In this document: piece by piece, positions 1 through 55,390 of the stretch
Layout of the letters: every line of letters starts with the position of its first letter
Position numbering within the stretch: the stretch's first letter is position 1
Source: Auanema rhodensis
Taxonomy: Eukaryota > Animalia > Nematoda
Assembly (NCBI GenBank): GCA_964057225.1
Contig: OZ059899.1
Location: 9,362,001 to 9,426,000, forward strand
Length of the DNA stretch: 64,000 nucleotides
Direction of reading: 5' to 3'
Notes under the pieces: model-generated
The model's input: the letters and a program-made list of their open reading frames with translations, nothing else
Databases searched by the model: none
What the model was told of the DNA's origin: nothing
Made by a program: the position numbers and the translations under genes

Positions 1-1508
1 GCCTCAGTAGGGATTCGATTATTAGTGTCAGATTCTTGTTTATATTCTGTTGTTTTTTTATTCAATAATTCTTCTGTGGTGATCAGTAAAGCCTGATCTT
101 TTTTAATTGTGGGAGTTTCTTTATCTTTTTGGATATTTTGTACACTTTTTCTTCCTTGTGAGCACAAGGCGGAATTATGATCTCCTTGGCAATTGCGACA
201 TTTTTGTTTTCTGCATTCCGAACTTTTGTGTTTATCGGAAAAGCAAATCCAACAGATGGCCTTTCCGCGAATGCGGTACCTTCTTTTCTCTGGTGTTTCA
301 AATGTGGTGCATTGATAAAAACGATGCTCGGATGAGTCGCAAAAGACACATGGCCAAGTTTGGGTTTTCCGTTGTTCTGCAGTGCTGTCTTTATGTGAAA
401 CAGATGTGACATTGTCTTTGTGATTTCGAAACTTTTGTTCATGACTATTTCTTGTTTGTTCTTTTAGAAAAAAGGAATAGATTTTGTGGTCTACCGCTGT
501 CAGCATTTCTTTAGTAGAATGGTAGTTGTTTGGATGAATTAGAATGTCTTCCACGATGTGGTATGGGAATTTGTTGAGAATCATCGCGGTACACATTTCG
601 CGGGATACTGTAGCTCCGGCTGCTTCAATTTGCCTGATAAGTGCCTTGGTTTCTCCAAATGTTTCTTTGCATGCTTTTGCATTATTGCTTGCAAATTTCA
701 AATTACGTAGTTGTGTCAAAAGAGAGTTGATATCCGACGAATAGTCTCCAAATTCAGAAACTAATGCTTCACGCATAAGCTCATAATTTTGAGCAGAGGG
801 TTCTATTCCTCTGATTGCTATTTGTGAATCGCCTTTGAGGCTTTCACAGAGTAGGTTTACCTTTTCTAAGGTTGTAAACTGTTCATTATCATGAACAAGT
901 CTATCAAAACGGCCCCAGAATGATTTGAAGTTCTCTGGTTTGCCATCAAATGTAGGTAGCGACATCGCTGGTTTTTGGATACTAGTTTGTTGGATGTGTA
1001 GGAATGACTTGATAATTTCCAGAAATTGATCATTCGATTTGTTTTCTGTTTCATTGTTTTCTGTTGAGCGATTGCTGTTGTGCTCAGATTCATTCTTATG
1101 AAGCGTTTTTCTCAGCTTTCTAAGTATGCGTTCGGCTTTCATGATGTGTTCGTCAAGCTCAATAATGGCGTTTTGAACCTTTTTAATGTTGGGTTCAAAG
1201 TCTTCATCGGATGTGAAGGCGATGTACTGTTCGTCTAATGCTTTACGAAGCGTTTTGTCTGATGCTTCGTAAAATTTTTGGAATTTTTTCTCGTTATCTT
1301 GATGATTTTTCAACGATTCTTTGAATTGGTGTTGGACTTTTGTCCAGCGAATGATAAGGCAAGAGAGGGTTTCCTCTTCTTCCTCAGTGTGGAAGTCGCA
1401 ATCTACCAGAATACCAGGAAGGTCCTTCACTTCCATCTCGTATCGTGTAAGTAATTCTCCGAGAAACTGGTTAGACTGTTTGATATGATTGACAAAAAGG
1501 AGTGACAT
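1..1508 (-). CDS. gag: BEL/Pao Gag (N-terminal part of a gag or gag-pol polyprotein), >=502 aa, runs off the window
   Basis: Manual translation from ATG at 1508 (MSLLFVNHIKQ...) is open to base 1; it is absent from the ORF track because no stop is reached. Contains DUF1759-like LPTFDGKPENFKSFWGRFDRLVHDNEQFTTLEKVNLLCESLKG...NYELMREALVSEFG and three zinc knuckles: CVFCDSSEHRFYQC, CWICFSDKHKSSEC, CRNCQGDHNSALC. Confidence 0.9.
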   Translation of the reverse strand, partial: MSLLFVNHIKQSNQFLGELLTRYEMEVKDLPGILVDCDFHTEEEEETLSCLIIRWTKVQHQFKESLKNHQDNEKKFQKFYEASDKTLRKALDEQYIAFTSDEDFEPNIKKVQNAIIELDEHIMKAERILRKLRKTLHKNESEHNSNRSTENNETENKSNDQFLEIIKSFLHIQQTSIQKPAMSLPTFDGKPENFKSFWGRFDRLVHDNEQFTTLEKVNLLCESLKGDSQIAIRGIEPSAQNYELMREALVSEFGDYSSDINSLLTQLRNLKFASNNAKACKETFGETKALIRQIEAAGATVSREMCTAMILNKFPYHIVEDILIHPNNYHSTKEMLTAVDHKIYSFFLKEQTRNSHEQKFRNHKDNVTSVSHKDSTAEQRKTQTWPCVFCDSSEHRFYQCTTFETPEKRRYRIRGKAICWICFSDKHKSSECRKQKCRNCQGDHNSALCSQGRKSVQNIQKDKETPTIKKDQALLITTEELLNKKTTEYKQESDTNNRIPTE

Positions 1509-1769
1509 TTTTGTCGTAGATGTAGGAATAACGCTTATATTCCTTCTACTTTCTCTTTTTTTTGTTTGTTTGGTGATCACAGTATATGTGATAGTGAATC
1601 TCTGTTTCTGTCTGCAGAGTTTGCTTATGGTTCAAGTCTTTTTGGTGTGACTTGACGTGGACTAATGGTTGCCACGATTTCTATTAAGTATGTTTTTTGC
1701 TCAAACACGCTTGATTTGAGCTGTATCTCACCTGCCACGCGGGACTTGAAGCGGCTAAGATCTGAACTA

Positions 1770-1781
1770 GCCGATGCACCA
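1770..1781 (-). promoter_or_regulatory. Primer-binding site complementary to the tRNA-Gly 3' end
   Basis: TGGTGCATCGGC, the complement of ...GCCGATGCA-CCA of eukaryotic tRNA-Gly(GCC), 3 nt downstream of the LTR end. Confidence 0.8.
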
Positions 1782-1784
1782 ATT

Positions 1785-2135
1785 TGTGGCGTTATACCGC
1801 AAGTGTATAGTATGGTTGGAAATAAAACACAAAGCGAATATGTAGAAAAGGGTTTATTGATGAATTAACAAGACAAGCACGGAATAGAATCACTGACTGC
1901 GAACGTTAAAAATGTAAGACTGATCTCTTCTCGTGGGCGGTCGTCAGCCTGAAACAAAGAGTTAGTCATGCCACATGTATAACACAACATGTGGTATGGA
2001 TAAAAATTACTTAGGAAGTTACAAGAAAGAAGAAAGAGGAGAGAGAGAGAGAGAGAGAGAGGGAGAGAACAGGAGAGACAAATAAAACAATTGTTGAAGA
2101 TAAAATTTATACAAACTCACTCGCTTATCGCGACA
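1785..2135 (-). repeat. 5' LTR of BEL/Pao element (351 bp)
   Basis: Minus strand starts TGTCGCGATA and ends TAACGCCACA (imperfect terminal inverted repeat, 8/10); AATAAA at 1853-1858 (minus); PBS follows. The partner LTR is outside the window. Confidence 0.8.
2035..2078 (+). repeat. (GA)n microsatellite inside the BEL/Pao LTR
   Basis: GAGGAGAGAGAGAGAGAGAGAGAGAGAGGGAGAGAACAGGAGAG seen directly. Confidence 0.85.
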
Positions 2136-2208
2136 CTCCTAATTTCTCTCATCACAATTGTCTTAGTTTTTTTTTCTCATAAGAGTTTCTGAAATCTTAG
2201 TTGAACAA

Positions 2209-2281
2209 GGCCGCGTGGCGCAATGGATAACGCGTCTGCCTACGGAGCAGAAGATTGTAGGTTCGAATCCTGCCGTGGTCG
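2209..2281 (+). tRNA. tRNA-Arg(ACG), major type
   Basis: GGCCGCGTGGCGCAATGGATAACGCGTCTGCCT-ACG-GAGCAGAAGATTGTAGGTTCGAATCCTGCCGTGGTCG folds as a cloverleaf with A/B boxes; T7 Pol III terminator 4 nt downstream. Confidence 0.95.
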
Positions 2282-2285
2282 TAAA

Positions 2286-2292
2286 TTTTTTT
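2286..2292 (+). terminator. Pol III oligo-T terminator (representative; present after every tRNA copy)
   Basis: TAAA-TTTTTTT directly after the discriminator base. Confidence 0.85.
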
Positions 2293-3227
2293 CATTTCAC
2301 TTGTCATTCATAAAAATCGAATTTATTTTTTTCAATGATTTTTTTTTGCAATGTGTCATAAGAATTACACAGTTGAACAAAACGTTTTTTAAGAATTTTC
2401 TTTGTTGTCAACATATATATTTTCCTGGAATTCGAAAGCATTCGGGATGGAAATTAGAAAGAAAAGAACTAGTTTTTCCTACTTTAAAACAAACAATAAG
2501 AAATAAAATGAAAAAGATTGTTAGATATCCAATTTAAACTTATACATTTACTTCGATAAAGAGCCTATTAGATTGAAATTTTATGTCTTACAGTTCTCCA
2601 ACAGAACAGACTGATCCTGATTTTTCTACGATTACATAAAACTCTCGTTTGATATAAAAAAAGGAGAGGAATAACGTTTCCAGGATGTCAAGGATATCGA
2701 ATCTAGTGATATTGTAGAAAAATGTAATGTCAGCTCCATAGGTTTTCTCCTAATTTCTCTCATCACAATTGTCTTAGTTTTTTTTCTCATAAGAGTTTCT
2801 GAAATCTTAGGTGAACAAGGCCGTATATAATTTCCTGGAATTCGAAAGCATTTGGGATGGAATTTAGAAAGTAATGAACTAGTTTTTCCTACTTTAAAAC
2901 AAACAATAAGAAATAAAATGAAAAAGATTGTTAGATATCCAATTTAAACTTATACATTTACTTCGATAAAGAGCCTATTAGTTTGAAATTTTATGTCTTA
3001 CAGTTCTCCAACAGAACAGACTGATCCTGATTTTTCTACGATTACATAAAACTCTCGTTTGATATAAAAAAAGGAGAGGAATAACGTTTCCAGGATGTCA
3101 AGGATATCGAATCTAGTGATATTGTAGAGAAATGTAATGTCAGCTTCATAGCTTTTCTCTTGATTTCTCTCATCACAATTGTCTTAGTTTTTTTCTCATA
3201 AGAGTTTCTGAAATCTCAGTTAAACAA

Positions 3228-3300
3228 GGCCGCGTGGCGCAATGGATAACGCGTCTGCCTACGGAGCAGAAGATTGTAGGTTCGAATCCTGCCGTGGTCG
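3228..3300 (+). tRNA. tRNA-Arg(ACG), major type
   Basis: Same 73-mer with oligo-T terminator. Confidence 0.93.
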
Positions 3301-3837
3301 TAAATTTTTTTTTATTTCACTTGTCATTCATAAAAATCGAATTTATTTTTTTCAACGACTATTTTTGCAATGTGTCATAAGAATTTCACAGTTTAACAAA
3401 ACGTTTTTTAAGAAGTTTTTTTGTTGTCAACATATATATTTTGCTGGAATTCGAAAGCATTTGGGATGGAAATTAGAAAGAAAAGAACTAGTTTTTCCTA
3501 CTTTAAAACAAACAATAAGAAATAGAATGAAAAAGATTGTTAGATATCCAATTTAAACTTATACATTTACTTCGATAAAGAGCCTATTAGATTGAAATTT
3601 CATGTCTTACAGTTCTCCAACAGAACAGACTGATCCTGATTTTTCTACGATTACATAAAACTCTCGTTTGATATGAAAAAAGGAGAGGAATAACGTTTCC
3701 AGGATGTCAATGATATTGAATCTAGTGATATTGTAGAAAAATGTAATGTCAGCTCCATAGGTTTTCTCTTAATTTCTCTCATCACAATTGTCTTAGTTTT
3801 TTTTCTCATAAGAGTTTCTGAAATCTTTGTTGAACAA

Positions 3838-3910
3838 GGTCGCGTGGCGCAATGGATAACGCGTCTGCCTACGGAGCAGAAGATTATAGGTTCGAATCCT
3901 GCCGTGGTCG
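3838..3910 (+). tRNA. tRNA-Arg(ACG), variant B (C3T, G49A)
   Basis: GGTCGCG.../ATTATAGG; A49-C65 mismatch. Confidence 0.8.
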
Positions 3911-5266
3911 TAAATTTTTTTCATTTCACTTGTCATTCATAAAAATCGAATTTATTTTTTTCAATGATTTTTTTTTGCAATGTGTCATAAGAATTACACA
4001 GTTGAACAAAACGTTTTTTAAGAATTTTCTTTGTTGTCAACATATATATTTTCCTGGAATTCAAAAGCATTTGGGATGGAAATTAGAAAGAAAAGAACTA
4101 GTTTTTCCTACTTTAAAACAAACAATAAGAAATAAAATGAATAAGATTGTTAGATATCCAATTTAAACTTATACATTTACTTCGATAAAGAGCCTATTAG
4201 ATTGAAATTTTATGTCTTACAGTTCTCCAACAGAACAGACTGATCCTGATTTTTCTACGATTACATAAAACTCTCGTTTGATATAAAAAAAGGAGAGGAA
4301 CAACGTTTCCAGGATGTCAAGGATATCGAATCTAGTGATATTGTAGAAAAATGTAATGTCAGCTCCATAGGTTTTCTCCTAATTTCTCTCATCACAATTG
4401 TCCTAGTTTTTTTTCTCATAAGAGTTTCTGAAATCTTAGGTGAACAAGGCCGTATATAATTTCCTGGAATTCGAAAGCATTTGGGATGGAATTTAGAAAG
4501 TAATGAACTAGTTTTTCCTACTTTAAAACAAACAATAAGAAATAAAATGAAAAAGATTGTTAGATATCCAATTTAAACTTATACATTTACTTCGATAAAG
4601 AGCCTATTAGATTGAAATTTTATGTCTTACAGTTCTCCAACAGAACAGACTGATCCTGATTTTTCTACGATTACATAAAACTCTCGTTTGATATAAAAAA
4701 AGGAGAGGAACAACGTTTCCAGGATGTCAAGGATATCGAATCTAGTGATATTGTAGAAAAATGTAATGTCAGCTCCATAGGTTTTCTCCTAATTTCTCTC
4801 ATCACAATTGTCTTAGTTTTTTTTCTCATAAGAGTTTCTGAAATCTTAGGTGAACAAGGCCGTATATAATTTCCTGGAATTCGAAAGCATTTGGGATGGA
4901 ATTTAGAAAGTAATGAACTAGTTTTTCCTACTTTAAAACAAACAATAAGAAATAAAATGAAAAAGATTGTTAGATATCCAATTTAAACTTATACATTTAC
5001 TTCGATAAAGAGCCTATTAGTTTGAAATTTTATGTCTTACAGTTCTCCAACAGAACAGACTGATCCTGATTTCTCTATGATTACATAAAACTCCCGTTTG
5101 ATATAAAAAAAGGAGAGGAATAACGTTTCCAGGATGTCAAGGATATCGAATCTAGTGATATTGTAGAGAAATGTAATGTCAGCTTCATAGCTTTTCTCTT
5201 GATTTCTCTCATCACAATTGTCTTAGTTTTTTTCTCATAAGAGTTTCTGAAATCTCAGTTAAACAA

Positions 5267-5339
5267 GGCCGCGTGGCGCAATGGATAACGGGTCTACCTA
5301 CGGAGCAGAAAATTGTAGGTTCGAATCCTGCCGTGGTCT
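5267..5339 (+). pseudogene. Degenerate tRNA-Arg(ACG)
   Basis: C25G, G30A, G45A and G73T disrupt the D and anticodon stems. Confidence 0.75.
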
Positions 5340-5876
5340 TAAATTTTTTTTTATTTCACTTGTCATTCATAAAAATCGAATTTATTTTTTTCAACGACTA
5401 TTTTTGCAATGTGTCAGAAGAATTTCACAGTTTAACAAAACGTTTTTTAAAAAGTTTTTTTGTTGTCAACATATATATTTTGCTGGAATTCGAAAGCATT
5501 TGGGATGGAAATTAGAAAGAAAAGAACTAGTTTTTCCTACTTTAAAACAAACAATAAGAAATAGAATGAAAAAGATTGTTAGATATCCAATTTAAACTTA
5601 TACATTTACTTCGATAAAGAGCCTATTAGATTGAAATTTTATGTCTTACAGTTCTCCATCAGAACAGACTGATCCTGATTTTTCTACGATTACATAAAAC
5701 TCTCGTTTGATATGAAAAAAGAAGAGAAATAACGCTTCTAGGATATCAATGATATTGAATCTAGTGATATTGTAGAAAAATGTAATGTCAGCTCCATAGG
5801 TTTTCTCTTAATTTCTCTCATCACAATTGTCTTAGTTTTTTTTCTCATAAGAGTTTCTGAAATCTTTGTTGAACAA

Positions 5877-5949
5877 GGTCGCGTGGCGCAATGGATAACA
5901 CGTCTGCCTACGGAGCAGAAGATTATAGGTTCGAATCCTGCCGTGGTCG
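5877..5949 (+). tRNA. tRNA-Arg(ACG), variant B plus G24A (possible pseudogene)
   Basis: Variant B with an extra D-stem mismatch. Confidence 0.65.
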
Positions 5950-6266
5950 TAAATTTTTTTCATTTCACTTGTCATTTACAAAAATCGAATTTATCTTCTT
6001 CAACAATTATTTTTGCAATGTGTCATAAGAATTTCACAGTTGAACAAAACGTTTTTTAAGAAGTTTTTTTGTTGTCAACATATATATTTTGCTGAAATTC
6101 AAAAGCATTTGGGATGGAAATTAGAAAGAAAAGAACTAGTTTTTCCTACTTTAAAACAAACAATAAGAAATAAAATGAATAAGATTGTTAGATATCCAAT
6201 TTAAACTTATACATTTACTTCGATAAAGAGCCTATTAGTTTGAAATTTTATGTCTTACAGTTCTCC

Positions 6267-6647
6267 CGTTACATATTGTTTCTTCCCGTCTTTTCATGGT
6301 CGGAAGATATATGTACTTCTACCTTGTTCCTTAGGTAGGCAGACCCGAACGCCCCGATTTCCTTATTAAGACAAACACTCAAAGAGAAAAGGATTCATTA
6401 TCAGATAACAAGAAAATACAATATAAGAATTACATTAAGAAAGAATATAAAGAGATATAATGAAGTATTAAATAGAGTATATATATAGATGATATAGAGA
6501 TGAGACTCACATGGCTATAAGACAACCTATCTGGGTTAGGCCAGAAGCAAGAGTGCCATGTGTGTCCCATGTTGTAGGCGGGGCTTGTTCAGGCTCCCGC
6601 TATTTGAATAGCGCGCACATGTTTACCATGTGCTAGCAGATGTGACA
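6267..6647 (-). repeat. 3' LTR of Gypsy copy 1 (381 bp)
   Basis: Direct repeat of 16008-16388; minus strand TGTCACATC...ATGTAACG; preceded by the PPT. Confidence 0.97.
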
Positions 6648-6659
6648 TCCCCCCACCTT
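6648..6659 (-). promoter_or_regulatory. Polypurine tract
   Basis: AAGGTGGGGGGA immediately 5' of the 3' LTR on the minus strand. Confidence 0.9.
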
Positions 6660-7247
6660 AAAAGGTTGAACGTCCTCGTTCAAAAACAAAATAAATTAAT
6701 TCACTATTTAAGATAGTTGGATGTTGGAAAAAAAATCATGGTGTAGTGGATAAAAAAAAAGTGTATACAATACGATTCGAAAGTTTAGCTATTGTCTCTT
6801 CAAGTTTGTTGAATTCGAAATGTAGTATCGAGTAGATTCTATTCCATTCACTTGAGTAGTGAAATGCTTGCAAACGAGAGCTTTGCTTCTAAACCATTCG
6901 ACTGTGATATAGTCGTTCATCTTCTCGAGTTGTACAGGTACGGTGTTACCCTGAGAATAGGTCGAGCCCGTTCTGTACAAAAAAATGAAAACTCGTTTAA
7001 CCCGTATGACTAATGTCCATAAGGTGAATACAAGTAATGATTAAGCATAAAAAAATAGCAAGATTCACAAGAGAATGTTGAAAAAAATCTACTCAATGAG
7101 AGTTGGAGTAATAAAACAAACTTTTGTAAAACAATAGCAGACTTCTCAGAGAAAATCAATCAACAACAAAGAAGTGGTACAATCAGAAATGGCACAAAAT
7201 AAAATAAAAAAATTTCAACAATTTGATTTTGTTAAAAAAAACTACCT

Positions 7248-10200
7248 TCAAGAAATTGTGATAACCGGAATAGATGTTGTCCGTTGGTAAGGTTTGACGA
7301 AGTCCTTGTGTACTCTTCTGCTTTTTCCTTTATCTGTTTGAACCACGACGAAAGATCTTTGAACTGCTGTAACTAAATAAGGCCCTTCGAATGAAGGTGT
7401 TAGTTTGTTTCGAGTAGAATTCACTTTTATCATAACTAAGTCATTAACCTGAATTTCTTTATTTTGTGTTCTATTTCGTGTATTGTACCGTTGTTCATTC
7501 TTCTTTGTGCATGTTTCAATTCTATCTTTTACTATATTAGATGTGCTTTCATTTTGTATTAGCGATCTATTGACAAAATCTTCTGTAGGATTGGCTGGTT
7601 CTTCAGTTTGAAGATTATTTCCAGGCAATTGATGGTCAATAGGAAGTCTTGCATCCCGACCAAATAATACAACATATGGACTAATAGATGTTGATGAGTT
7701 TGGTAACGTATTGATCGCAAACATAACTTTGGGTAGGTGTATATCCCAGTTAGTTTGTTGTTCATTCACGAATGAAGAGAGAGCTTCTTCCAAAGTTCTA
7801 TGAAGTCTCTCAACTTGTCCATTAGCATTTTTATGATATGGTAGCGTAGTAGTGTGTTTAATTCCAAATTGTTTACACATAGCTTGAAATTCAGATGACA
7901 AAAAGCTACTACCATTATCAGTTATCATACTCATTGGTGGTCCATATATGAAAACAAATCTAATTACAAACGCTTTTGTGATTTCAGTAGCCGTTTGTGT
8001 TATTAATGGGCAAGTTGTTCCCCATTTACTAAAAGCGTCTTGAATACTCAAGATGTATCGATGTCCATCATTAGTGCGAGGTAAAGGACCTAGTTTATCT
8101 ACATGAATACGATCAAATGGCTTTTCGGGTATAACAAATCTTCCCATAGGTTGAATATACGATTGGTGTGGGTTAGATTTCCTACTTGCACATTTTGTAC
8201 AACGATTAATAAATTCAGTTATTTGTGGAACCATATTAGTCCAAAAGAATCGTCGTCGAATCGCATCAGTAGTTTTATTTATACCTAGGTGTGCACCAAT
8301 TTTGGAATCTTCGTGAAAAAATTTGATGACAACATCAGTTATTTTGTCGTTTCGAGGCAAAATAATAGATGGTTTTAAATAATTTTTCGCTTGTTTTGCA
8401 TGTAATATGCCTTCTCGTTCTTCATACCGATCTGATATATTAGCCGGACAGTTATCATTATTAATTTGAGAAAGTGCTTCGCGAATCCAGGGAACTCCAG
8501 CTTGAACTTTCCGTATTTCTTCACAATTTAGTTGGTCAATAGAAGAAATAGTTGTAATATGAGCAATAAAAGCATCAACAGGTTTTACTTTGTCCTTTGG
8601 TTTAGTAGGACGACTGTCATTTGCTTCGTTTCCTATATACCTGGAGAGAGCATCACAGACACTGTTTAATTTGCCAGGACGATATTCAATCTTTATGTTG
8701 AAATCTTGTATCATTAGTTGATACTTGGCTAATCTACCTATGAGATCTTTACGCGACATTAAACTGGTTAATGGTCGGTGATCTGTGATAACTGTGGTAG
8801 GTACTCCTAATACATAGGTACGGAATTGTTGAAGAGCAAAGACTAAACCGAGTGCTTCAACTTCAATAGGAGGATATTTCCGTTCCGCTGGAGTCAACTT
8901 TCTACTAGCAAACGCAATCGGGTGCAATGGAGAATTTTTCTCTGCTGATTGCAATAAAACTGCTCCCACAGCGATCATACTGCCATCACTTTCTATAACA
9001 AAAGGTTGGTCTGCTTTAGGAGGTTTCAGTACAGGGGCAGTACACAGTGATGTTTTTAAAGTTTTAAATGCGTCTGCATGTTCCGATTTCCACTCAAAAG
9101 GAGTATCCTTATGTGTTAACTTATACAATGGCTCAGCTATTCCGGCATAATTTTGAATAAACCGTCGAAAATAGTTAGTCATACCTAGAAAGGATCTGAC
9201 AGCCGTAACTGTACTTGGATTTGGAAATTCGGAAACAGCCTGTATCTTAGCAGGATCTGGTTTAACACCATTTCTACCTATTACAAAACCCAAAAACTTT
9301 ACTTCAGTGGCTGCAAAGCAACATTTAGATAACTTAATTTTTAACCCTAGTTCAGTGACCTTTTTCAGCACTTCTTGTATATCTCTTAAATGTTCATCAG
9401 CTGAGTTCGAAATTATTAGCAAATCATCTAGATATACAAACAGTTTGCATCTAACAAGAGATTGCAAGTATCGTACTGCGGATTGAAAAGTGTGTGGCGC
9501 TCCACACAATCCCATAGGCATTCGGCAATACTGATAGGTACCTGATGGAGTGGTAAAAGCAGTTAGGTGTCTATCTGAGCGTTTCAACGGTATTTGGAAG
9601 AAACCAGAAATGAGATCAAAATTCGAAAAGAACTGAGCTCCAGCCGCTAAGTCTATGATATCAGGAATGTGTGGGATGCTGTATGTTTGTTTCTTAGTAA
9701 CACTATTCAATGCTCTAAAGTCAGTTACGAACCGGAAAGAATTATCTTTCTTTTTCACAAGAACAACTGGACTAGTGAAAGTAGCCGTCGAATTTTCGAT
9801 TATACCTTGCGACAACATTTCTTTCACTTGCCGTTCTACTTCTTCTTGCTTACCCAATGGTACTCTGTAAGATCTACTTTTTGGGAAATCCATATCGGAT
9901 CTTATAGGAATGGCATGTTCTACTGGTCCGCAAAAGAGACCAATATTATGATCATGGTTGAAAAATGCCGTTTGGTTTTCCTTAATGATTGTGATCAGAT
10001 TTTTCTTCATTTTATGGGACAGAGTGCAAGAATTGAAGTTCAAATCATCCAAAAGATGCTGAGGAAAAGTTGGTAACTTATCTTCCCAATCAGCTTCTGG
10101 TGGAACATAATCGTTCATAATTTCTTTAGATGCTATAAGTCCTGAACCAATGTGGTCATTTTTATTAATTTTAATTGGCTTTGAAGAATTGTTTGATACT

Positions 10201-13200
10201 ACCATAGTAATAGGAAAAGGTCCTATGGCGGCATCTGGAATTGAGATAGGACCTATGCTAGATTTTAAAAGAGCATATTGATCAAAATCTAATTCTGGTC
10301 CTGTTTGCAAAGATATGTGGGAGGTACTATGTGGTGGAACTGTTACTGTGGACAAACTTATGATATTTACTGTTTTAGTTGTGGTTTTATATGCAAAACA
10401 ACCAGGTTTTACTAAGGGTGTTTCCATATTACCAACAATCAACTTTCCTTTACATAGTTTTAATGTAGTAAATATCTCTCTTTCTTCCAACGTACGCATA
10501 AAATCAGTACCAAGTAACATTTGTCCTGGACAGTCATTGTCTTCAGATATTAAAAATTCGTGTTCCACTTGGTAACCTGCTATACCCACATCTAACTTGC
10601 ATTTTCCCACAAAGCGAAACTCTGATCCATTTGCAGTGGATGCAGATTTAGAATATTTTGTAAAATATTGTCTTCCAATATATGCCAATGTGGAGAACGG
10701 AATATATGAGACCGTAGCTCCAGAATCCCATAATGCTAACAGTCCTCTACCTTCAATGTCAATATGAACAAACGGTAACATGTGTCCATTTTTCTTTGTT
10801 GTTGTGTGACATACAAAAGGTATGGCTAAAGGAATGTAAGTTATTATGGTGGGAAAATAGCTCCGCATCAATTCATCACTAACTGTTTCATGAATCTCAT
10901 CTCCCTCAAGTGGTGGAGCTGTTGGGCTCAACATGATATGGTTTATTTTTAACATAGAAGTAGGGGAGAGATAACATTTTATAGTGAAATATAATGCTAT
11001 CATTAGACATAATATCAGAGTTATACAACCGATGGTAATGAGTGTTCGTTCAATTGAACCTATACAAAAGTCAATGAACAGATCCCAATTGGAGAAAACA
11101 ATTTTCCTGGCATCTCTTATAAGTTTACTTCCTTTGAAGATGAAAGAGGAAATTTGAGGCCAATCATGTGAACGAGAAATTACGCGGAGAAGATCATGGT
11201 GAGGTGAAGTAGATAAACTATAACCATAAGTTAATCCAATAGATAGGGCTAAGGATTTTTCAGTCGAATTTTCAAACAAATTCCGCCCTGTGAATCGAAG
11301 TTTACTCAATTCAGCATAATGATCATGTTTTTCTGAATGAATACTATCTACTTTATGTGTGTCACCTTTATAATCTCTCCATGTTCCATTTTCATACCAA
11401 ATCTCTGTCTCTTTGTGTTCACAATTGATCTCATGTCCTTCAGTGCTCAAATCGTAGCTATCGATAGGAGCAAAGAATAATTGTTTATCGTGTGTTAAAA
11501 CAGGGGTCTCTGCATAACATTTATCATTGTAAGAATGATTACGATAAATGAAATGTGGTTCTATTTCCTGACAAGTTGTTATTTTTAAAACATTTCTTCC
11601 AACAAATCGGGCAACGATATCATCCCGCTGAAGCATAGCTCGTACTCCTATTGTAGGATGTATACGTAATATAGCTTGCCAGCTTTTTACAGTTTCCATT
11701 TGAGATTTACAGATGGTATGAAACTGTTGATGAAATTCGTCAATTATGGAGAGACGCGCTTTCTCAAACCCATAATTCAACTTATTATCTATTATCGTTT
11801 TAGTTTTATGCTCTGATTTGTGGAGAACATTGTCATATACTTCTGCTACATACAACTCTCGACCTCTCTCGTACGCATTAGGGGTAGGAGTTGTTAAACT
11901 ACGAATTGTAGTTTTGGTGGCAGTTATTGGGGTTACAGTAGTATGATGTACCATATTTTTATCAGTTGTAATTTGAGTTTTAACCCAACTTATGAATTCT
12001 AAAACTTCTGTTTTATTGAATTTAGGATTTTCCTGTGGGTATTCGATGGACTGTGGAGGAAATCCATAATATGCTGTACTATTCTTTGTATAAAGGTTGT
12101 GATAGTCAGGCAGCTTGGATATAATTGCTAAATCTTGCTCTTGGTTATTTCTAACAGTAGCATCAGCTTTTTGTTGTCGACTGACTTGCATGTCACGAGA
12201 TATTTGTTCTTTTCCCGATTGTTGTTGGATCATGAATAACATGCCTTGAGCAGTTGCAATAATTTCAGATTGATTCATATTTCCACTGCGTGGTAATATA
12301 GATGGATATAAGGCTCTTGCCAACTGTTCGATTGATGGAACTGTTTGTGTACCATCAAGAATTGTGGCTTGATATACTACTGCGTGAGCCATCCCTCGAA
12401 AGAAATCTTCTATGGATGTTGTAGATTTCATCAAAGATCTTTTTAACCGAGGAACTTCTATACGACGAGCTACTTGAGTGATAAGATCATCCAATTTCAT
12501 GCTATTAATCACCTGTCTAGTAGCCAGTTTAATTTCCTCTATACCCACACATTGTAAAATCAAAAGATTGGGATCTTTGAAATTATTAGACTTTGCCCAG
12601 TTAGTTATGTGATCTTTTGTCAATCCTAAACTAACAATTGTGTCAATGAACAGTGGATTATCTATCGCGAATTGGAGCAAACTCTCATAAGATGATGTAG
12701 CTGCATATCTCATATATTTTGCGTAAAACTTAGTGATAGATGCAGATCCAAAAATGAAAGTAGGTCTTAGAAATGGAAACGCATATGGTTGGGATTTCGC
12801 ATTAACAAAAAGATAATCATCACTGAAAGAGCGATGTTTTTGAGGTAATGCATTACGTTTATTTCTGCGTTTATCAGCATTAAGCAAAGTATTGGAAAGA
12901 TCAAGCAAATTATAAACACGGGGATATGCTGTGAATCGGATAATTGCCTCAGAAGATGATTCAAAAACAGCGAATTCGAAACAAGATTGAACGTGAGCGG
13001 ATGTGGAATGATTTTGGAGAACAAAAGCGCTTTCAATAGAGTGAACTAGAAGAATATGATCACCCAACATGGCGGAGAAGGGGCCAAGTTTTTGATAGTG
13101 ACAGACAACTGATGGGATAGGTGGTTGCCAGATAACTGCACCTTCACCAGTTGCACAAAACCCTTCATTTCCTTTACAATTATCAGTATTTATAAATAAG

Positions 13201-14855
13201 TCTGATACAATGTGATCTTCTTTCAATCTAGTTATTATCCCTCGCTTCAATACAAATTGTTCAATTTCTACACATTCTTCAGTGGACCAAGAGCGAGTTG
13301 GATTATGCTCGTTTAATGGTGTTTCAAAAACTGAATGCTGTTGGGCATTCATGATTTTATCATTCCACATACGATTTCTATGTGCTCGAACACAATCTTT
13401 CTTATCTACTGTTTCAATATGAGAGAATGTGGTGTTACGATCTCTCAAAAACATGAAATCTCTCACACAGCTTTTATACTTTTTCACATAGCATTTCCAT
13501 GCTTCCCATGACTCTATCTCAGCCTTTGGTAGATATATTTCTACCTCAACACTGTGAGCCTTTTCAATTTCTGCCTTATGGCAGCCTGTGACCACAGGAG
13601 GTGTTACTAATATACCCCCTTCAGATTGAGCGCAAATCTGATATTTTGCCGACCCAAAGGGAAGGCATGAGAGTGCCAATAAAGTCAGGCACAACGTGAC
13701 CGGTGGCATGAATGGGGTCGCTACGCTGTATACCCTTGAGTTACCATTCCCATTGGCTGATGGTCTTTGTCTTCTTGGGGAACTAGGCCTAGGGTTCCAA
13801 GACGAGCTATTGGCATTTCTGCCATTGGCAAATGGGCGGTTTCCCGGGTTAGGACGCCTATTCATATTCCCGTTCTGCGAGTTATTATTATTATAACGTA
13901 CGGCAGAAGGTCGCTCTCTCTCTCGCTCATAATCATTAGAGCCATTATTGTGCTGAGTCCAGTTATTATTTTTTTTATTATTTTTATTATTTTTATAATT
14001 TTTATTATTATTATTATTCCTACTTCTTTCTCTTTCTTCACTAAAGCTTAATTTATGCTGTAAAGCATTTATGAGCTCCTTCAAGGTGCTGGTGTCTTCA
14101 TTTCTTTTCATGAAGCTATTACGAACGCCTTCTTCAAACCTAGCTAATTTCTTAGCTTGTTCATAAGTGGCGGGGTTTTTAGTTAAAACCGCAATACCCA
14201 GTTCCTCTTTTAAACCATTTAAAAATGCCGTTTTCAACATTGGTTCCCGCTCGGGATCCATTGGTGACATTATGGTGCTTGCCATTCTCTCTAATTCCAT
14301 ACTAAAATCAAGAACAGATTTATCTCCTTGTTGTACTCGATGAATAAGCGCTATGGTGAAATTTTTATCTGTTTTAGGCGCTAAAAGCTCAGTGAGCTGA
14401 TCCATCAAAACAATCCATGATCCATTAGTTCTTATGCCACTAGGAATACTATTATACAAGGAGAGAGCTGTTTCATTTGATTCCAAAAGAAGAGGCAAAA
14501 TTAATAGTCTCTCAGGTAAGCTTAGATTCATAACATTAAAAAATCTATTTAAAGATTCAACAAAAGAACGAAAGCTACGAGAGCCGTCATACCTGGGACA
14601 GAGATGGCAATTCAAAATAGTTGCCATATTTCTAGAGGGTGGAGCAACATTAGAATTAGGAGATGGAGAGGTAGGAGTCATTTTTCTTTCAAAAGCTTTA
14701 GTTATAGCAGCGGCCCACCGACTTGGTGATCTATTTCGTACTGTAGTAGGTGCCCGAGGTGTTTCCTCAGTGATGGCCTTTCTGCTTTTACTTCTCGTTC
14801 TAATTGTTAGAGAAGAAGAGTGAGAAGAAGAAGAGGAATCACCTTCTTCTCTCAA
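7248..14855 (-). CDS. Gag-Env-Pol polyprotein (Gag CA, signal peptide, gB-like glycoprotein, TM, aspartic protease, RT, RNase H, integrase). Start uncertain: first ATG at 14681, frame open from ~15000
   Basis: 2535-aa ORF. Gag: RYDGSRSF, QQGDKSVLDF, FLNGLKEEL. PR: ALWDSGA (10719-10727). RT: FDLISGFFQI, MPMGL, YLDD (9423-9434). RNase H: ESDGS, EVEAL, TDH, DALSR. IN: HHCC, HVD/TDNG/NGQVER and FEGPY. Confidence 0.95.
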   Translation of the reverse strand: MREEGDSSSSSHSSSLTIRTRSKSRKAITEETPRAPTTVRNRSPSRWAAAITKAFERKMTPTSPSPNSNVAPPSRNMATILNCHLCPRYDGSRSFRSFVESLNRFFNVMNLSLPERLLILPLLLESNETALSLYNSIPSGIRTNGSWIVLMDQLTELLAPKTDKNFTIALIHRVQQGDKSVLDFSMELERMASTIMSPMDPEREPMLKTAFLNGLKEELGIAVLTKNPATYEQAKKLARFEEGVRNSFMKRNEDTSTLKELINALQHKLSFSEERERSRNNNNNKNYKNNKNNKKNNNWTQHNNGSNDYERERERPSAVRYNNNNSQNGNMNRRPNPGNRPFANGRNANSSSWNPRPSSPRRQRPSANGNGNSRVYSVATPFMPPVTLCLTLLALSCLPFGSAKYQICAQSEGGILVTPPVVTGCHKAEIEKAHSVEVEIYLPKAEIESWEAWKCYVKKYKSCVRDFMFLRDRNTTFSHIETVDKKDCVRAHRNRMWNDKIMNAQQHSVFETPLNEHNPTRSWSTEECVEIEQFVLKRGIITRLKEDHIVSDLFINTDNCKGNEGFCATGEGAVIWQPPIPSVVCHYQKLGPFSAMLGDHILLVHSIESAFVLQNHSTSAHVQSCFEFAVFESSSEAIIRFTAYPRVYNLLDLSNTLLNADKRRNKRNALPQKHRSFSDDYLFVNAKSQPYAFPFLRPTFIFGSASITKFYAKYMRYAATSSYESLLQFAIDNPLFIDTIVSLGLTKDHITNWAKSNNFKDPNLLILQCVGIEEIKLATRQVINSMKLDDLITQVARRIEVPRLKRSLMKSTTSIEDFFRGMAHAVVYQATILDGTQTVPSIEQLARALYPSILPRSGNMNQSEIIATAQGMLFMIQQQSGKEQISRDMQVSRQQKADATVRNNQEQDLAIISKLPDYHNLYTKNSTAYYGFPPQSIEYPQENPKFNKTEVLEFISWVKTQITTDKNMVHHTTVTPITATKTTIRSLTTPTPNAYERGRELYVAEVYDNVLHKSEHKTKTIIDNKLNYGFEKARLSIIDEFHQQFHTICKSQMETVKSWQAILRIHPTIGVRAMLQRDDIVARFVGRNVLKITTCQEIEPHFIYRNHSYNDKCYAETPVLTHDKQLFFAPIDSYDLSTEGHEINCEHKETEIWYENGTWRDYKGDTHKVDSIHSEKHDHYAELSKLRFTGRNLFENSTEKSLALSIGLTYGYSLSTSPHHDLLRVISRSHDWPQISSFIFKGSKLIRDARKIVFSNWDLFIDFCIGSIERTLITIGCITLILCLMIALYFTIKCYLSPTSMLKINHIMLSPTAPPLEGDEIHETVSDELMRSYFPTIITYIPLAIPFVCHTTTKKNGHMLPFVHIDIEGRGLLALWDSGATVSYIPFSTLAYIGRQYFTKYSKSASTANGSEFRFVGKCKLDVGIAGYQVEHEFLISEDNDCPGQMLLGTDFMRTLEEREIFTTLKLCKGKLIVGNMETPLVKPGCFAYKTTTKTVNIISLSTVTVPPHSTSHISLQTGPELDFDQYALLKSSIGPISIPDAAIGPFPITMVVSNNSSKPIKINKNDHIGSGLIASKEIMNDYVPPEADWEDKLPTFPQHLLDDLNFNSCTLSHKMKKNLITIIKENQTAFFNHDHNIGLFCGPVEHAIPIRSDMDFPKSRSYRVPLGKQEEVERQVKEMLSQGIIENSTATFTSPVVLVKKKDNSFRFVTDFRALNSVTKKQTYSIPHIPDIIDLAAGAQFFSNFDLISGFFQIPLKRSDRHLTAFTTPSGTYQYCRMPMGLCGAPHTFQSAVRYLQSLVRCKLFVYLDDLLIISNSADEHLRDIQEVLKKVTELGLKIKLSKCCFAATEVKFLGFVIGRNGVKPDPAKIQAVSEFPNPSTVTAVRSFLGMTNYFRRFIQNYAGIAEPLYKLTHKDTPFEWKSEHADAFKTLKTSLCTAPVLKPPKADQPFVIESDGSMIAVGAVLLQSAEKNSPLHPIAFASRKLTPAERKYPPIEVEALGLVFALQQFRTYVLGVPTTVITDHRPLTSLMSRKDLIGRLAKYQLMIQDFNIKIEYRPGKLNSVCDALSRYIGNEANDSRPTKPKDKVKPVDAFIAHITTISSIDQLNCEEIRKVQAGVPWIREALSQINNDNCPANISDRYEEREGILHAKQAKNYLKPSIILPRNDKITDVVIKFFHEDSKIGAHLGINKTTDAIRRRFFWTNMVPQITEFINRCTKCASRKSNPHQSYIQPMGRFVIPEKPFDRIHVDKLGPLPRTNDGHRYILSIQDAFSKWGTTCPLITQTATEITKAFVIRFVFIYGPPMSMITDNGSSFLSSEFQAMCKQFGIKHTTTLPYHKNANGQVERLHRTLEEALSSFVNEQQTNWDIHLPKVMFAINTLPNSSTSISPYVVLFGRDARLPIDHQLPGNNLQTEEPANPTEDFVNRSLIQNESTSNIVKDRIETCTKKNEQRYNTRNRTQNKEIQVNDLVMIKVNSTRNKLTPSFEGPYLVTAVQRSFVVVQTDKGKSRRVHKDFVKPYQRTTSIPVITIS
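10980..13700 (-). other. env: Envelope glycoprotein domain (class III fusogen, herpesvirus gB/chuvirus G-like) within the polyprotein
   Basis: Internal signal peptide VTLCLTLLALSCLPFGSA, Cys-rich ectodomain with ~8 N-glycosylation sequons, furin sites KRRNKR and RLKR, gB-like segment ICKSQ..W..ILRIHPT...DDIVARFVGRNVLKITTC...CYAETPV, and TM LITIGCITLILCLMIALYFTI. Confidence 0.8.
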
Positions 14856-15994
14856 AAATTCAAAAGGAGAGAGGTAGGTGGATGGAGTATTTAAGTTTTT
14901 AGAATTAAATTCAAAAACTTGGCGTACCTCTGGTGATCCTTGTTCCTGATCTTTGTTTTCCTCGCTGATGTCCGAGTCCGACAGGGTGGCTGGTGAATAC
15001 AGTTAGATGAATATAAGAGCGCGTACTGGAAGCAACTAGACTCCAGTAAAAACGTTTGTGACAATGGCGTCTGATGAAGGAGGATCGTTGAAGCTTCAAG
15101 CTCCGCCTCCAGCCATGTGTCACGACACCAGATGTTAGCGCTTATGGTAAACAACCATTGACCGTCTGTCGTGATATTTGAATATTATAATCACTTATGT
15201 CAGCTTAGAGACAAATAAGGAATCACAGATGGTGCCTTAAGCCTGTTTGAAAACTTTTGAATTTTAACAGCTGTTATTGACTACACATATCGAACAGCTG
15301 GTACGCGTGGGCCAACTATTTGAATGTGAGTAAGCTTAAAGTAAACAAAAATGTCTCATCTCGTATATTAAGTTCAATTTTATAAAGTTTATTAAGATTT
15401 GTAGAAAGAATTTCAAAATAAATCTTAATTAAGATAATTTTTAATTTGATTTCAAAAGATTTAGAAGGTAATTTAAGATTGATATAGGAATTTAAATTCA
15501 GTAATCTGTCAATAATATAGGAAAAAGGAAACGTTGGCAGACGTAGAGTGGACTTGGGTGGGTAGGAATTTAAATGTTCTTATTATCTCTGAACTAATAA
15601 GAAAAGAGTTAACAGGAGTAGAACCCTGATGAACCCTTGGATGTGAATCAAAATAAAAAATCGTAAATAAAATTATCCCACCAGCCTCCAGCTTCCAAAC
15701 AACTCAGCTAAAAAGTGAGCTCTGTTGCCACACTGGACATTCACATCATAAAGTAATGAATCAAAATAGCACGCGCGTGCATAACAAAAAGGTAACGCTC
15801 GTCAAAACTATTGTCTGATAGTTTCCCCAAACGTCTCAGACACCTCCCAGTTTTCGTTGAGCGGAGGAGAAGTGGTAGCCAAAATAATTTTTGGGGAAAT
15901 CATGGTGCACGGCTCGGTTACTCCTCACTGTTGGGTAATTAAGTCCAAAAGTCTCGTAAACTTGCTGTCAATAAATTAACAGTAAAGTAAGCAA

Positions 15995-16007
15995 GGTGGA
16001 ACCTCCA
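15995..16007 (-). promoter_or_regulatory. Primer-binding site complementary to the tRNA-Gln 3' end (copy 1)
   Basis: TGGAGGTTCCACC directly after the 5' LTR, the complement of ...GGTGGAACCT-CCA of eukaryotic tRNA-Gln. Confidence 0.88.
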
Positions 16008-16388
16008 CGTTACATATCGTTTCTTCCCGTCTTTTCATGGTCGGAAGATATATGTACTTCTACCTTGTTCCTTAGGTAGGCAGACCCGAACGCCCCGATT
16101 TCCTTATTAAGACAAATACTCAAAGAGAAAAGGATTCATTATCAGATAACAAGAAAATACAATATAAGAATTACATTAAGAAAGAATATAAAGAGATATA
16201 ATGAAGTATTAAATAGAGTATATATATAGATGATATAGAGATGAGACTCACATGGCTATAAGACAACCTATCTGGGTTAGGCCAGAAGCAAGAGTGCCAT
16301 GTGTGTCCCATGTTGTAGGCGGGGCTTGTTCAGGCTCCCGCTATTTGAATAGCGCGCACATGTTTACCATGTGCTAGCAGATGTGACA
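16008..16388 (-). repeat. 5' LTR of Gypsy copy 1 (381 bp)
   Basis: Direct repeat of 6267-6647; followed by the PBS; flanked by TSD CTCC. Confidence 0.97.
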
Positions 16389-16611
16389 CTCCAACAGAAC
16401 AGACTGATCCTGATTTCTCTATGATTACATAAAACTCCCGTTTGATATAAAAAAAGGAGAGGAATAACGTTTCCAGGATGTCAAGGATATCGAATCTAGT
16501 GATATTGTAGAAAAATGTAATGTCAGCTCCATAGGTTTTCTCCTAATTTCTCTCATCACAATTGTCTTAGTTTTTTTTCTCATAAGAGTTTCTGAAATCT
16601 TTGTTGAACAA

Positions 16612-16684
16612 GGTCGCGTGGCGCAATGGATAACGCGTCTGCCTACGGAGCAGAAGATTATAGGTTCGAATCCTGCCGTGGTCG
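16612..16684 (+). tRNA. tRNA-Arg(ACG), variant B
   Basis: C3T, G49A copy. Confidence 0.8.
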
Positions 16685-17630
16685 TAAATTTTTTTCATTT
16701 CACTTGTCATTTACAAAAATCGAATTTATCTTCTTCAACGATTATTTTTGCAATGTGTCATAAGAATTTCACAGTTGAACAAAACGTTTTTTAAGAAGTT
16801 TTTTTGTTGTCAACATATATATTTTGCTGGAATTCAAAAGCATTTGGGATGGAAATTAGAAAGAAAAGAACTAGTTTTTCCTACTCTAAAACAAACAATA
16901 AGAAATAAAATGAAAAAGATTGTTAGATATCCAATTTAAACTTATACATTTACTTCGATAAAGAGCCTATTAGATTGAAATTTTATGTCTTACAGTTCTC
17001 CAACAGAACAGACTGATCCTGATTTTTCTACGATTACATAAAACTCTCGTTTGATATAAAAAAAGGAGAGGAACAACGTTTCCAGGATGTCAAGGATATC
17101 GACTCTAGTGATATTGTAGAAAAATGTAATGTCAGCTCCATAGGTTTTCCCCTAATTTCTCTCATCACAATTGTCTTAGTTTTTTTCTCATAAGAGTTTC
17201 TGAAATCTTAGGTGAACAAGGCCGTATGAAATTTCCTGTAATTCGAAAGCATTTGGGATGGAAATTAGAAAGAAAAGAACTAGTTTTTCCTACTTTAAAA
17301 CAAACAATAAGAAATAAAATGAAAAAGATTGTTAGATATCCAATTTAAACTTATACATTTACTTCGATAAAAAGCCTATTAGATTGAAATTTTATGTCTT
17401 ACAGTTCTCCAACAGAACAGACTGATCCTGATTTCTCTACGATTACATAAAACTCTCGTTTGATATAAAAAAAGGAGAGGAATAACGTTTCCAGGATGTC
17501 AAGGATATCGAATCTAGTGATATTGTAGAAAAATGTAATGTCAGCTCCATAGGTTTTCTCCTAATTTCTCTCATCACAATTGTCTTAGTTTTTTTTTCTC
17601 ATAAGAGTTTCTGAAATCTTAGTTGAACAA

Positions 17631-17703
17631 GGCCGCGTGGCGCAATGGATAACGCGTCTGCCTACGGAGCAGAAGATTGTAGGTTCGAATCCTGCCGTGG
17701 TCG
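17631..17703 (+). tRNA. tRNA-Arg(ACG), major type
   Basis: Same 73-mer. Confidence 0.93.
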
Positions 17704-18648
17704 TAAATTTTTTTCATTTCACTTGTCATTCATAAAAATCGAATTTATTTTTTTCAATGATTTTTTTTTGCAATGTGTCATAAGAATTACACAGTTGAAC
17801 AAAACGTTTTTTAAGAATTTTCTTTGTTGTCAACATATATATTTTCCTGGAATTCGAAAGCATTTGGGATGGAAATTAGAAAGAAAAGAACTAGTTTTTC
17901 CTAATTTAAAACAAACAATAAGAAATAAAATGAAAAAGAATGTTAGATATCCAATTTAAACTTATACATTTACTTCGATAAAGAGCCTATTAGATTGAAA
18001 TTTTATGTCTTACAGTTCTCCAACAGAACAGACTGATCCTGATTTTTCTACGATTACATAAAACTCTCGTTTGATATGAAAAAAGGAGAGGAATAACGTT
18101 TTCAGGATATCAATGATATCGAATCTAGTGATAATGTAGAAAAATGTAATGTCAGCTCCATAGGTTTTCTCCTAATTTCTCTCATCACAATTGTCTTAGT
18201 TTTTTCTCATAAGAGTTTCTGAAATCTTAGGTGAACAAGGCCGTATAAAATTTCCTGTAATTCGAAAGCATTTGGGATGGAATTTAGAAAGAAAAGAACT
18301 AGTTTTTCCTACTTTAAAACAAACAATAAGAAATAAAATGAAAAAGATTGTTAGATATCCAATTTAAACTTATACATTTACTTCGATAAAGAGCCTATTA
18401 GTTTGAAATTTTATGTCTTACAGTTCTCCAACAGAACAGACTGATTCTGATTTCTCTATGATTACATAAAACTCCCGTTTGATATAAAAAAAGGAGAGGA
18501 ATAACGTTTCCAGGATGTCAAGGATATCGAATCTAGTGATATTGTAGAAAAATGTAATGTCAGCTCCATAGGTTTTCTCCTAATTTCTCTCATCACAATT
18601 GTCTTAGTTTTTTTTCTCATAAGAGTTTCTGAAATCTTTGTTGAACAA

Positions 18649-18721
18649 GGTCGCGTGGCGCAATGGATAACGCGTCTGCCTACGGAGCAGAAGATTATAG
18701 GTTCGAATCCTGCCGTGGTCG
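18649..18721 (+). tRNA. tRNA-Arg(ACG), variant B
   Basis: C3T, G49A copy. Confidence 0.8.
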
Positions 18722-19667
18722 TAAATTTTTTTCATTTCACTTGTCATTTACAAAAATCGAATTTATTTTCTTCAACGATTATTTTTGCAATGTGTCATAA
18801 GAATTTCACAGTTGAACAAAACGTTTTTTAAGAAGTTTTTTTGTTGTCAACATATATATTTTGCTGGAATTCAAAAGCATTTGGGATGGAAATTAGAAAG
18901 AAAAGAACTAGTTTTTCCTACTTTAAAACAAACAATAAGAAATAAAATGAAAAAGATTGTTAGATATCCAATTTAAACTTATACATTTACTTCGATAAAG
19001 AGCCTATTAGATTGAAATTTTATGTCTTACAGTTCTCCAACAGAACAGACTGATCCTGATTTTTCTACGATTACATAAAACTCTCGTTTGATATAAAAAA
19101 AGGAGAGGAACAACGTTTCCAGGATGTCAAGGATATCGAATCTAGTGATATTGTAGAGAAATGTAATGTCAGCTCCATAGGTTTTCTCTTAATTTCTCTC
19201 ATCACAATTGTCTTAGTTTTTTTCTCATAAGAGTTTCTGAAATCTTAGGTGAACAAGGCCGTATATAATTTCCTGTAATTCGAAAGCATTTGGGATGGAA
19301 TTTAGAAAGAAAAGAACTAGTTTTTCCTACTTTAAAACAAACAATAAGAAATAAAATGAAAAAGATTGTTAGATATCCAATTTAAACTTATACATTTACT
19401 TCGATAAAAAGCCTATTAGATTGAAATTTTATGTCTTACAGTTCTCCAACAGAACAGACTGATCCTGATTTCTCTACGATTACATAAAACTCTCGTTTGA
19501 TATAAAAAAAGGAGAGGAATAACGTTTCCAGGATGTCAAGGATATCGAATCTAGTGATATTGTAGAAAAATGTAATGTCAGCTCCATAGGTTTTCTCCTA
19601 ATTTCTCTCATCACAATTGTCTTAGTTTTTTTTTCTCATAAGAGTTTCTGAAATCTTTGTTGAACAA

Positions 19668-54996: not shown

Positions 54997-55377
54997 TGTC
55001 ACATCTGCAAGCACATGGTAAACATGTGCGCGCTATTCAAATAGCGGGAGCCTGAACAAGCCCCGCCCACAACATGGGACACACATGGCACTCTTGCTTC
55101 TGGCCTAACCCAGATAGGTTGTCTTATAGTCATGTGAGTCTCATCTCTATATCATCTATATATATACTCTATTTAATACTTTATTAGATCTCTTTATATT
55201 CTTTCTTAATGTAATTCTTATATTGTATTTTCTTGTTATCTGATAATGAATCCTTTTCTCTTTAAGTATTTGTCTTAATAAGGAAATCGGGGCGTTCGGG
55301 TCTGCCTACCTAAGGAACAAGGTAGAAGTACATATATCTTCCGACCATGAAAAGACGGGAAGAAACAATATGTAACG
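54997..55377 (+). repeat. 5' LTR of Gypsy copy 2 (381 bp)
   Basis: TGTCACATC...ATGTAACG; about 6-7 substitutions versus the copy-1 LTRs. Confidence 0.95.
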
Positions 55378-55390
55378 TGGAGGTTCCACC
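55378..55390 (+). promoter_or_regulatory. Primer-binding site (tRNA-Gln), copy 2
   Basis: TGGAGGTTCCACC immediately after the LTR. Confidence 0.88.

Follow-up and report, generated by a model that had tools for sequence, protein, structure and literature searches.

The 64,000-nt stretch of the Auanema rhodensis genome analysed here (the window) contains an LTR element that spans 6267-16388 on the minus strand (10,122 bp). The element, its second copy and the surrounding array comprise the following features, with residue numbers counted from position 14855 (translation P0001):

2209-54996 (+): host tandem array, units of 410 bp interspersed with units of ~200 bp that contain tRNA-Arg(ACG)
6263-6266 (+): target-site duplication (TSD) CTCC, partner at 16389-16392
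16008-16388 (-): 5' LTR, 381 bp, TGT...ACG
15996-16007 (-): primer-binding site (PBS) of tRNA-Gln type, directly behind the 5' LTR
7248-15002 (-): single stop-free frame, 2584 codons from stop to stop
13713-14681 (-): Gag, with the capsid domain at 14205-14471 followed by an Asn/Arg-rich stretch
13647-13712 (-): internal signal-peptide-like stretch, aa 382-403, last residues G-S-A
11043-13646 (-): predicted gB-like class III fusogen ectodomain, aa 404-1271
12855-12866 (-): furin-like motif RNKR, aa 664-667
12438-12449 (-): second furin-like motif RLKR, aa 803-806, absent from the closest env relative
11796-12920 (-): lineage-specific insert of ~375 residues between two conserved gB halves
10986-11042 (-): predicted transmembrane (TM) helix, aa 1272-1290
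10914-10946 (-): predicted cytosolic tail with protease-site-like INHI (aa 1304-1307), then late-domain-like PTAP (aa 1311-1314)
10494-10766 (-): aspartyl protease (PR), Pfam aa 1364-1454, DSG at aa 1377
9279-9758 (-): reverse transcriptase (RT), Pfam aa 1700-1859, YLDD at aa 1808
8700-9092 (-): RNase H (RH), Pfam aa 1922-2052
7833-8342 (-): integrase (IN; H2C2 and core), Pfam aa 2172-2341
6648-6659 (-): polypurine tract (PPT), ahead of the 3' LTR
6267-6647 (-): 3' LTR, 381 bp
54997-64000 (+): second copy, 99.3% identical, continuing past the window end

The element is intact and young, as the earlier note had stated: the two LTRs show 2 differences over 381 bases, and PBS, PPT and the 4-bp duplication CTCC are all present, the latter verified by comparison with an uninterrupted repeat unit of the host array. 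PR-RT-RH-IN with intact catalytic motifs, including DSG and YLDD, together with the LTR pair, tRNA PBS, PPT and TSD, place the element in Ty3/gypsy (Metaviridae). An assignment to BEL/Pao, as for Atlas virus and its kin, was rejected since Peptidase_A17/DUF1759 and an env behind Pol are lacking, and so was an insect errantivirus of the Drosophila gypsy type, since the element has no separate F-type env ORF 3' of pol. Within the 3' UTR the longest stop-free stretch has 83 codons, and accessory ORFs are not evident there.

The second copy lies on the opposite strand, at a different site in the repeat unit, and carries frameshifts near 58999 and 61771, which may be real or read errors. Between the two copies, 30 codons differ synonymously and 19 non-synonymously (pN/pS 0.18, binomial p 3e-9), and no stop substitution was found in the 2,489 codons compared. 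Both sit in the host array, which holds 45 tRNA-Arg(ACG) genes in 53 kb; the earlier note mentions neither the second copy nor the array. Long tandem arrays such as the one around the element are prone to assembly errors, so the structure of the element could in principle be an assembly artefact, or else a viral glycoprotein gene nested into an ordinary gypsy element. Two independent insertions colinear over 9 kb and the same domain order in dozens of relatives from other genomes refute this reading, to which we assign a practically negligible probability.

Units of the array are 92-100% alike and spaced by 410 or 610 bases in irregular order. An Rfam search of 1-19000 returned tRNAs only; the eight tRNA copies in this part score 39 to 58 bits, and some may be decaying. 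Targeting of tRNA genes by the element was considered and is unsupported: 204-317 bases separate the insertion edges from the closest tRNA genes, the sites differ, and array sequence makes up almost the entire window. At the array's edge, 1-1631 on the minus strand is occupied by a 543-codon frame with DUF1759 (E 5e-16), a BEL/Pao gag that continues past the window start.

The first ATG of the frame is found at 14681 and predicts a protein of 2477 aa; the frame stays open for 107 codons upstream, and a TTG codon stands at position 14855, where the earlier note had let it start. Where translation truly starts is uncertain; it may begin at a non-AUG codon or in a spliced 5' exon. The upstream part (14682-15002, minus strand) is acidic and Ser-rich, and 58 codons compared there show 0 changes between the two copies. 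Gag, signal-like stretch, ectodomain, TM helix, PR, RT, RH and IN follow each other in one frame, confirming the domain order first proposed from the bare sequence. The hydrophobic stretches also lie where they had been placed, as the two most hydrophobic 19-mers of the whole protein are residues 382-400 (13656-13712, mean 1.81) and 1272-1290 (mean 2.63). Gag contains a Retrotrans_gag domain (Pfam, aa 129-217) without a CCHC knuckle, and probably ends at the protease-site-like sequence RVYSV. Signal peptidase cleavage follows the -3/-1 rule, which the G-S-A end of aa 382-403 fits. The ectodomain had also been described as Cys-rich and glycosylatable. These descriptors carry no evidential weight because the densities are no different from those of Pol, with 1.94% Cys in the insert versus 1.69% in Pol and 8 sequons in 877 residues versus 14 in 1186.

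What the region between Gag and Pol encodes was addressed at the levels of sequence and predicted structure. The Pfam match to Glycoprotein_B was weak and below the cut-off (aa 1024-1115, E 4e-4), the env region gave only a chance match in a sequence search against the PDB (E 0.41), and 0 of 2,127 candidates passed in a word-seeded homologue search with aa 404-1290. A full HMMER search of 1.84 billion representatives with env yielded 248 matches at E<=1e-3; the env relatives match PF24664/PF00606, and PF24664 was present in 21 of the 23 relatives scanned. ESM Atlas returned viral glycoproteins with best scores of 0.88, which we take as a lead only.

An AlphaFold2 model of env was built from 68 aligned sequences. 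Its N-terminal beta-rich part and the region after a long central helix are confident (pLDDT 80-98 across most of model residues 1-260 and 651-760) and the part between them is poor, with a pTM of 0.45 and pLDDT below 50 in 276 of 856 residues. Searched with Foldseek, this model recovered herpesvirus gB in all top rows of the PDB, with a best E of 2e-11; in BFVD the top rows were glycoproteins of nyami-, rhabdo-like and chu-like type (best E 2e-18), the second row being a nyavirus glycoprotein. VIA-align superimposed it on HCMV gB over 397 aligned residues (Z 12.7, rmsd 4.5 A); the first 10 rows were all class III fusogens, and the remaining rows fell below Z 6. The insert is thus predicted to be a class III (gB-like) fusogen. 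AlphaFold and Foldseek were among the checks that the earlier note had proposed for its env call, which their outcome and the Pfam matches of the relatives support.

The furin-like motif RNKR lies within the ~375-residue insert, which consists of a helical part followed by a Thr/Pro-rich stretch. In 86 relatives holding both gB halves, the spacing between them has a median of 57 residues and ranges from 12 to 508, with 18 relatives at 250 or more; a typical insert has a furin-like motif at its start and a Thr/Pro-rich stretch at its end. P0002 is the one relative with clear homology to the query insert (E 5e-15). When insert groups were compared by profile, three comparisons converged on one helical stretch of ~40 residues, all with weak scores (E 0.003-0.04), and in a shuffle control of one insert-group pair the score was 20.5 versus a shuffle maximum of 17.5. 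This weakly suggests a possible helical core common to the query insert and two other insert groups. Folded alone from two sequences, the insert reached a pLDDT of 43.8. That it forms a receptor-binding or shielding module is a guess.

In the best 150 of the 248 env matches, env is followed by pol in one protein in 48 cases (9 of them with a Gag match too) and preceded by pol in 5; 12 hold gag and env only and 85 env only, Pol domains being undetected in 97. Env stands ahead of Pol in 48 of the 53 relatives that hold both, some of which are gene models. In five relatives (P0033, P0047, P0048, P0077 and P0084) a gB-like env follows the integrase; the two checked, P0033 and P0077, are BEL/Pao by Pfam, so this env family is common to two retroelement superfamilies. 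The env of these BEL/Pao elements is homologous to that of the query and likewise forms a fusogen inside a retroelement polyprotein, but it stands after a BEL/Pao Pol. Atlas virus, according to the parts of its description used here, shares the fusogen inside a retroelement polyprotein but has a phlebovirus-like Env after a BEL/Pao Pol. Some env-carrying relatives, P0040 (500-555), P0250, P0239 and P0186, hold extra Pfam domains (RRM; dUTPase; Ig-like; PF07245 beside PF24664).

Among the 120 RT-RH matches listed, env was detected before RT in 33, after RT in 0 and not at all in 87. The RT phylogeny, also proposed by the earlier note, was computed with FastTree from 132 RT-RH rows and midpoint-rooted. 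It places the query in a rhabditid clade of 12 members, all 12 with env before pol (support 0.999), whose named members come from Auanema, Caenorhabditis and Diploscapter; env is present in 37 members of the enclosing clade of 40 (support 0.80). The nearest named RT-RH relatives among the matches listed are 57-67% identical, all of them rhabditid, which by itself makes a rhabditid nematode the likely host. In named relatives Env is 22-36% identical where RT is 56-72% identical. Env fold, cysteine pattern, signal, TM helix and furin motif persist across the clade.

The element is a member of a published nematode group of GAG-ENV-POL elements with gB-type env, and the layout itself is not new. 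In 2022 Sacco and colleagues reportedly used the name NERV for nematode elements that are said to have a continuous gag-env-pro-pol ORF and, in some members, accessory ORFs. According to the available text of Chary and Hayashi (eLife 2026, PMC13524379), gB-type ENV is the sole ENV type in errantiviruses of Nematoda, Bryozoa and Platyhelminthes, and their gene order is GAG-ENV-POL. The same text credits the nematode GAG-ENV-POL case to Sacco et al. 2022 (J Gen Virol 103:001739), summarized there as a nematode metavirus in which env and pol are flipped in order and the glycoprotein was acquired from an RNA virus. Env before pol and an RNA-virus-type glycoprotein link these non-canonical nematode ERVs to the query by description only. 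An in-frame env between gag and pol in one polyprotein is furthermore found in Burro/GYPSM1 of planarians, which its authors call the first such case in the part of PMC6431247 consulted. Novelty of the layout, which the earlier note had called unverified, is therefore refuted. As described in that part, Burro differs by an ORF1 of ~4,900 aa with MATH, BIR, BCL2 and other cargo and with CCHC knuckles, compared with 2,477 aa in the query without such Pfam matches or knuckle. Cer1 of C. elegans, which had been named among the first comparators, shares the nematode host, the Ty3/gypsy Pol and one long ORF; its extra ORF stands after pol, is expressed from a spliced mRNA and encodes a nuclear export protein, not Env (PMC10309623, portions consulted), so the comparison was misplaced.

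The query resembles the nematode errantiviruses in the available portions of PMC13524379 in gene order, in a gB-type env between signal and TM helix (by hydropathy here), in its Ty3/gypsy Pol and in the presence of multiple near-identical copies. Its 12-nt PBS is identical to those of Clat_errantivirus_4 and Ctro_errantivirus_1; in the 30 of 36 nematode rows covered in the supplement, tRNA-Gln occurs in 8 and this exact 12-mer in 2. By eye, the query shares the eight-cysteine pattern of domains I-II with Clat_errantivirus_4, the row that P0185, from the query's own clade of 0.999 support, closely resembles, and with respect to the cysteine-bridge classes C1a/C1d and C2 its cysteines resemble the Nematoda_C1 rows, to which this comparison was confined. 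As the RT-RH tree was built without sequences of that paper, PBS and by-eye match form the link to them. The query is probably an uncatalogued family member because three of its env peptides are absent from seven supplements of PMC13524379, in which gaps could hide them, and because the nearest RT-RH relative is 67% identical.

Relatives have signal-like and TM stretches at corresponding positions. In 55 of 60 relatives the 25 residues after the TM helix are more positive than the 25 before it, as expected for a polyprotein threaded from cytosol to lumen and back to cytosol, a topology that we consider plausible. Sequences on the cytosolic sides were compared in 60 TM-to-PR linkers, reduced from 69 by merging at 60% identity, and in 44 env-less pre-protease windows, which remained of 50 after 3 with an upstream TM-like stretch were set aside and 3 merged. 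The motif [VI]N-x-[VIL], which we take to be the typical gypsy protease site, was found in 36 of 60 linkers versus 8 of 44 env-less windows (shuffled linkers: mean 8.4, max 17) and, before the signal, 19 times in 2,000 residues versus 10 in 14,496 RT-RH residues. In the query, INHI lies 13 residues after the TM helix, and RVYSV before the signal is a looser site that does not fit this pattern. Env is flanked by protease-site-like motifs on both of its predicted cytosolic sides. As a separate observation, [YF][IVLY]P occurs shortly before the protease in 31 of 60 env-carrying linkers versus 3 of 44 env-less windows, which may reflect clade ancestry.

P[TS]AP occurs in 11 of 60 linkers versus 2 of 44 env-less windows (Fisher p 0.04, a value to be read with the related elements not being independent and the motif having been picked after seeing it), in 8 of 45 linkers after stricter merging and in none of 14,496 RT-RH residues; shuffled linkers gave a mean of 0.30 and a maximum of 3. 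It is missing from 49 of 60 linkers, and its occurrences are scattered over the tree. PPxY was found in 0 of 60 linkers and YPxL in 3 of 60 versus 2 of 44 env-less windows, so neither is enriched. The late-domain-like PTAP behind the TM helix is likely a budding signal.

Altogether, these data describe an intact young Ty3/gypsy GAG-ENV-POL element, and we consider it probable, with good though incomplete confidence, that its Gag, predicted gB-like fusogen and Pol are produced as a single protein that crosses the ER membrane twice. We infer the following course. Residues 382-403 would act as an internal signal, which signal peptidase would cut after A403; the signal peptide would then hold Gag on the cytosolic face and so replace an anchor of the matrix or myristoyl kind (the residue after Met59 is Thr). 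Env folding would take place in the lumen, with furin cleavage at 664-667, while translocation would halt at the TM helix, leaving tail and Pol on the cytosolic side, so that Gag and Pol would both begin membrane-bound beside Env. For budding, ESCRT-I would be recruited by the tail PTAP, after which the protease of the element would release Gag near RVYSV and Pol near INHI. A permanent tether of Pol to the Env tail, as the earlier note had envisaged, is doubtful given the protease-site-like motif 13 residues past the TM helix; the tether would be transient because the protease would free Pol near INHI. The 1:1:1 stoichiometry claimed there would hold for synthesis alone.

Alternatively, splicing or early polyadenylation could give Gag, Env and Pol from separate messages, or an excess of Gag, the threaded full-length protein being minor. 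Capsids need Gag in excess over Pol, which would suit such an arrangement, as would the frame open upstream of the first ATG with a donor-like site at 14929. The single-ORF element Cer1 is also described as making a spliced mRNA in the consulted portions of PMC10309623. However, under strict criteria the sense strand holds a single acceptor-like site, at 12828 within Env, and a single donor-like site, neither of which is positioned so that splicing would bypass env or set it apart, and env and pol are kept in one protein in 48 of the best 150 relatives, some of them gene models. We therefore regard separate messages as unlikely.

A further alternative concerns what Env is kept for: passage from cell to cell or from soma to germline within one animal, or mere hitchhiking since a break in env would cut off Pol, in either case without a budded infectious particle. 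The in-frame position protects env from stops and frameshifts, the divergence of Env exceeds that of RT in the named relatives, and Env alone differs between the two copies by 3 synonymous and 4 non-synonymous changes (pN/pS 0.36 on 7 changes), all in line with this reading. Mere linkage would, however, permit in-frame deletion, and the clade has retained fold, cysteines, signal, TM helix and furin motif; moreover, a threaded polyprotein would be compatible with movement inside one animal. We rate this alternative as quite improbable.

Within the threaded-polyprotein reading, a more far-reaching proposal is tentative and, in our estimate, rather doubtful: that the element uses a mode of assembly undescribed for any reverse-transcribing element. 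Gag would ride on the cut signal peptide of Env and Pol on the Env tail, with the PTAP late domain located past the Env anchor rather than within Gag, so that one threaded precursor would serve targeting, envelope loading, enzyme packaging and budding, and the variable furin-loop insert would be a receptor-binding or shielding module of a stand-alone gB. A word search of the main text of PMC13524379, figures aside, found no mention of polyprotein, fused, splic-, late domain, PTAP, ESCRT or budding. In the literature searched, to which the text of Sacco et al. 2022 did not belong, PTAP behind the TM helix, two-sided protease-site-like motifs and the ~375-residue furin-loop insert have no prior mention.

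Gene order alone is known for such elements, and their assembly is the remaining question. The copy described here makes this question concrete, as it is intact, stems from a family with at least two recent insertions, and provides coordinates for the predicted signal, the furin site, two protease cuts and PTAP. If the threaded precursor proves true, it would represent a retroelement with a flavivirus/alphavirus-like membrane polyprotein strategy and a late domain outside Gag.
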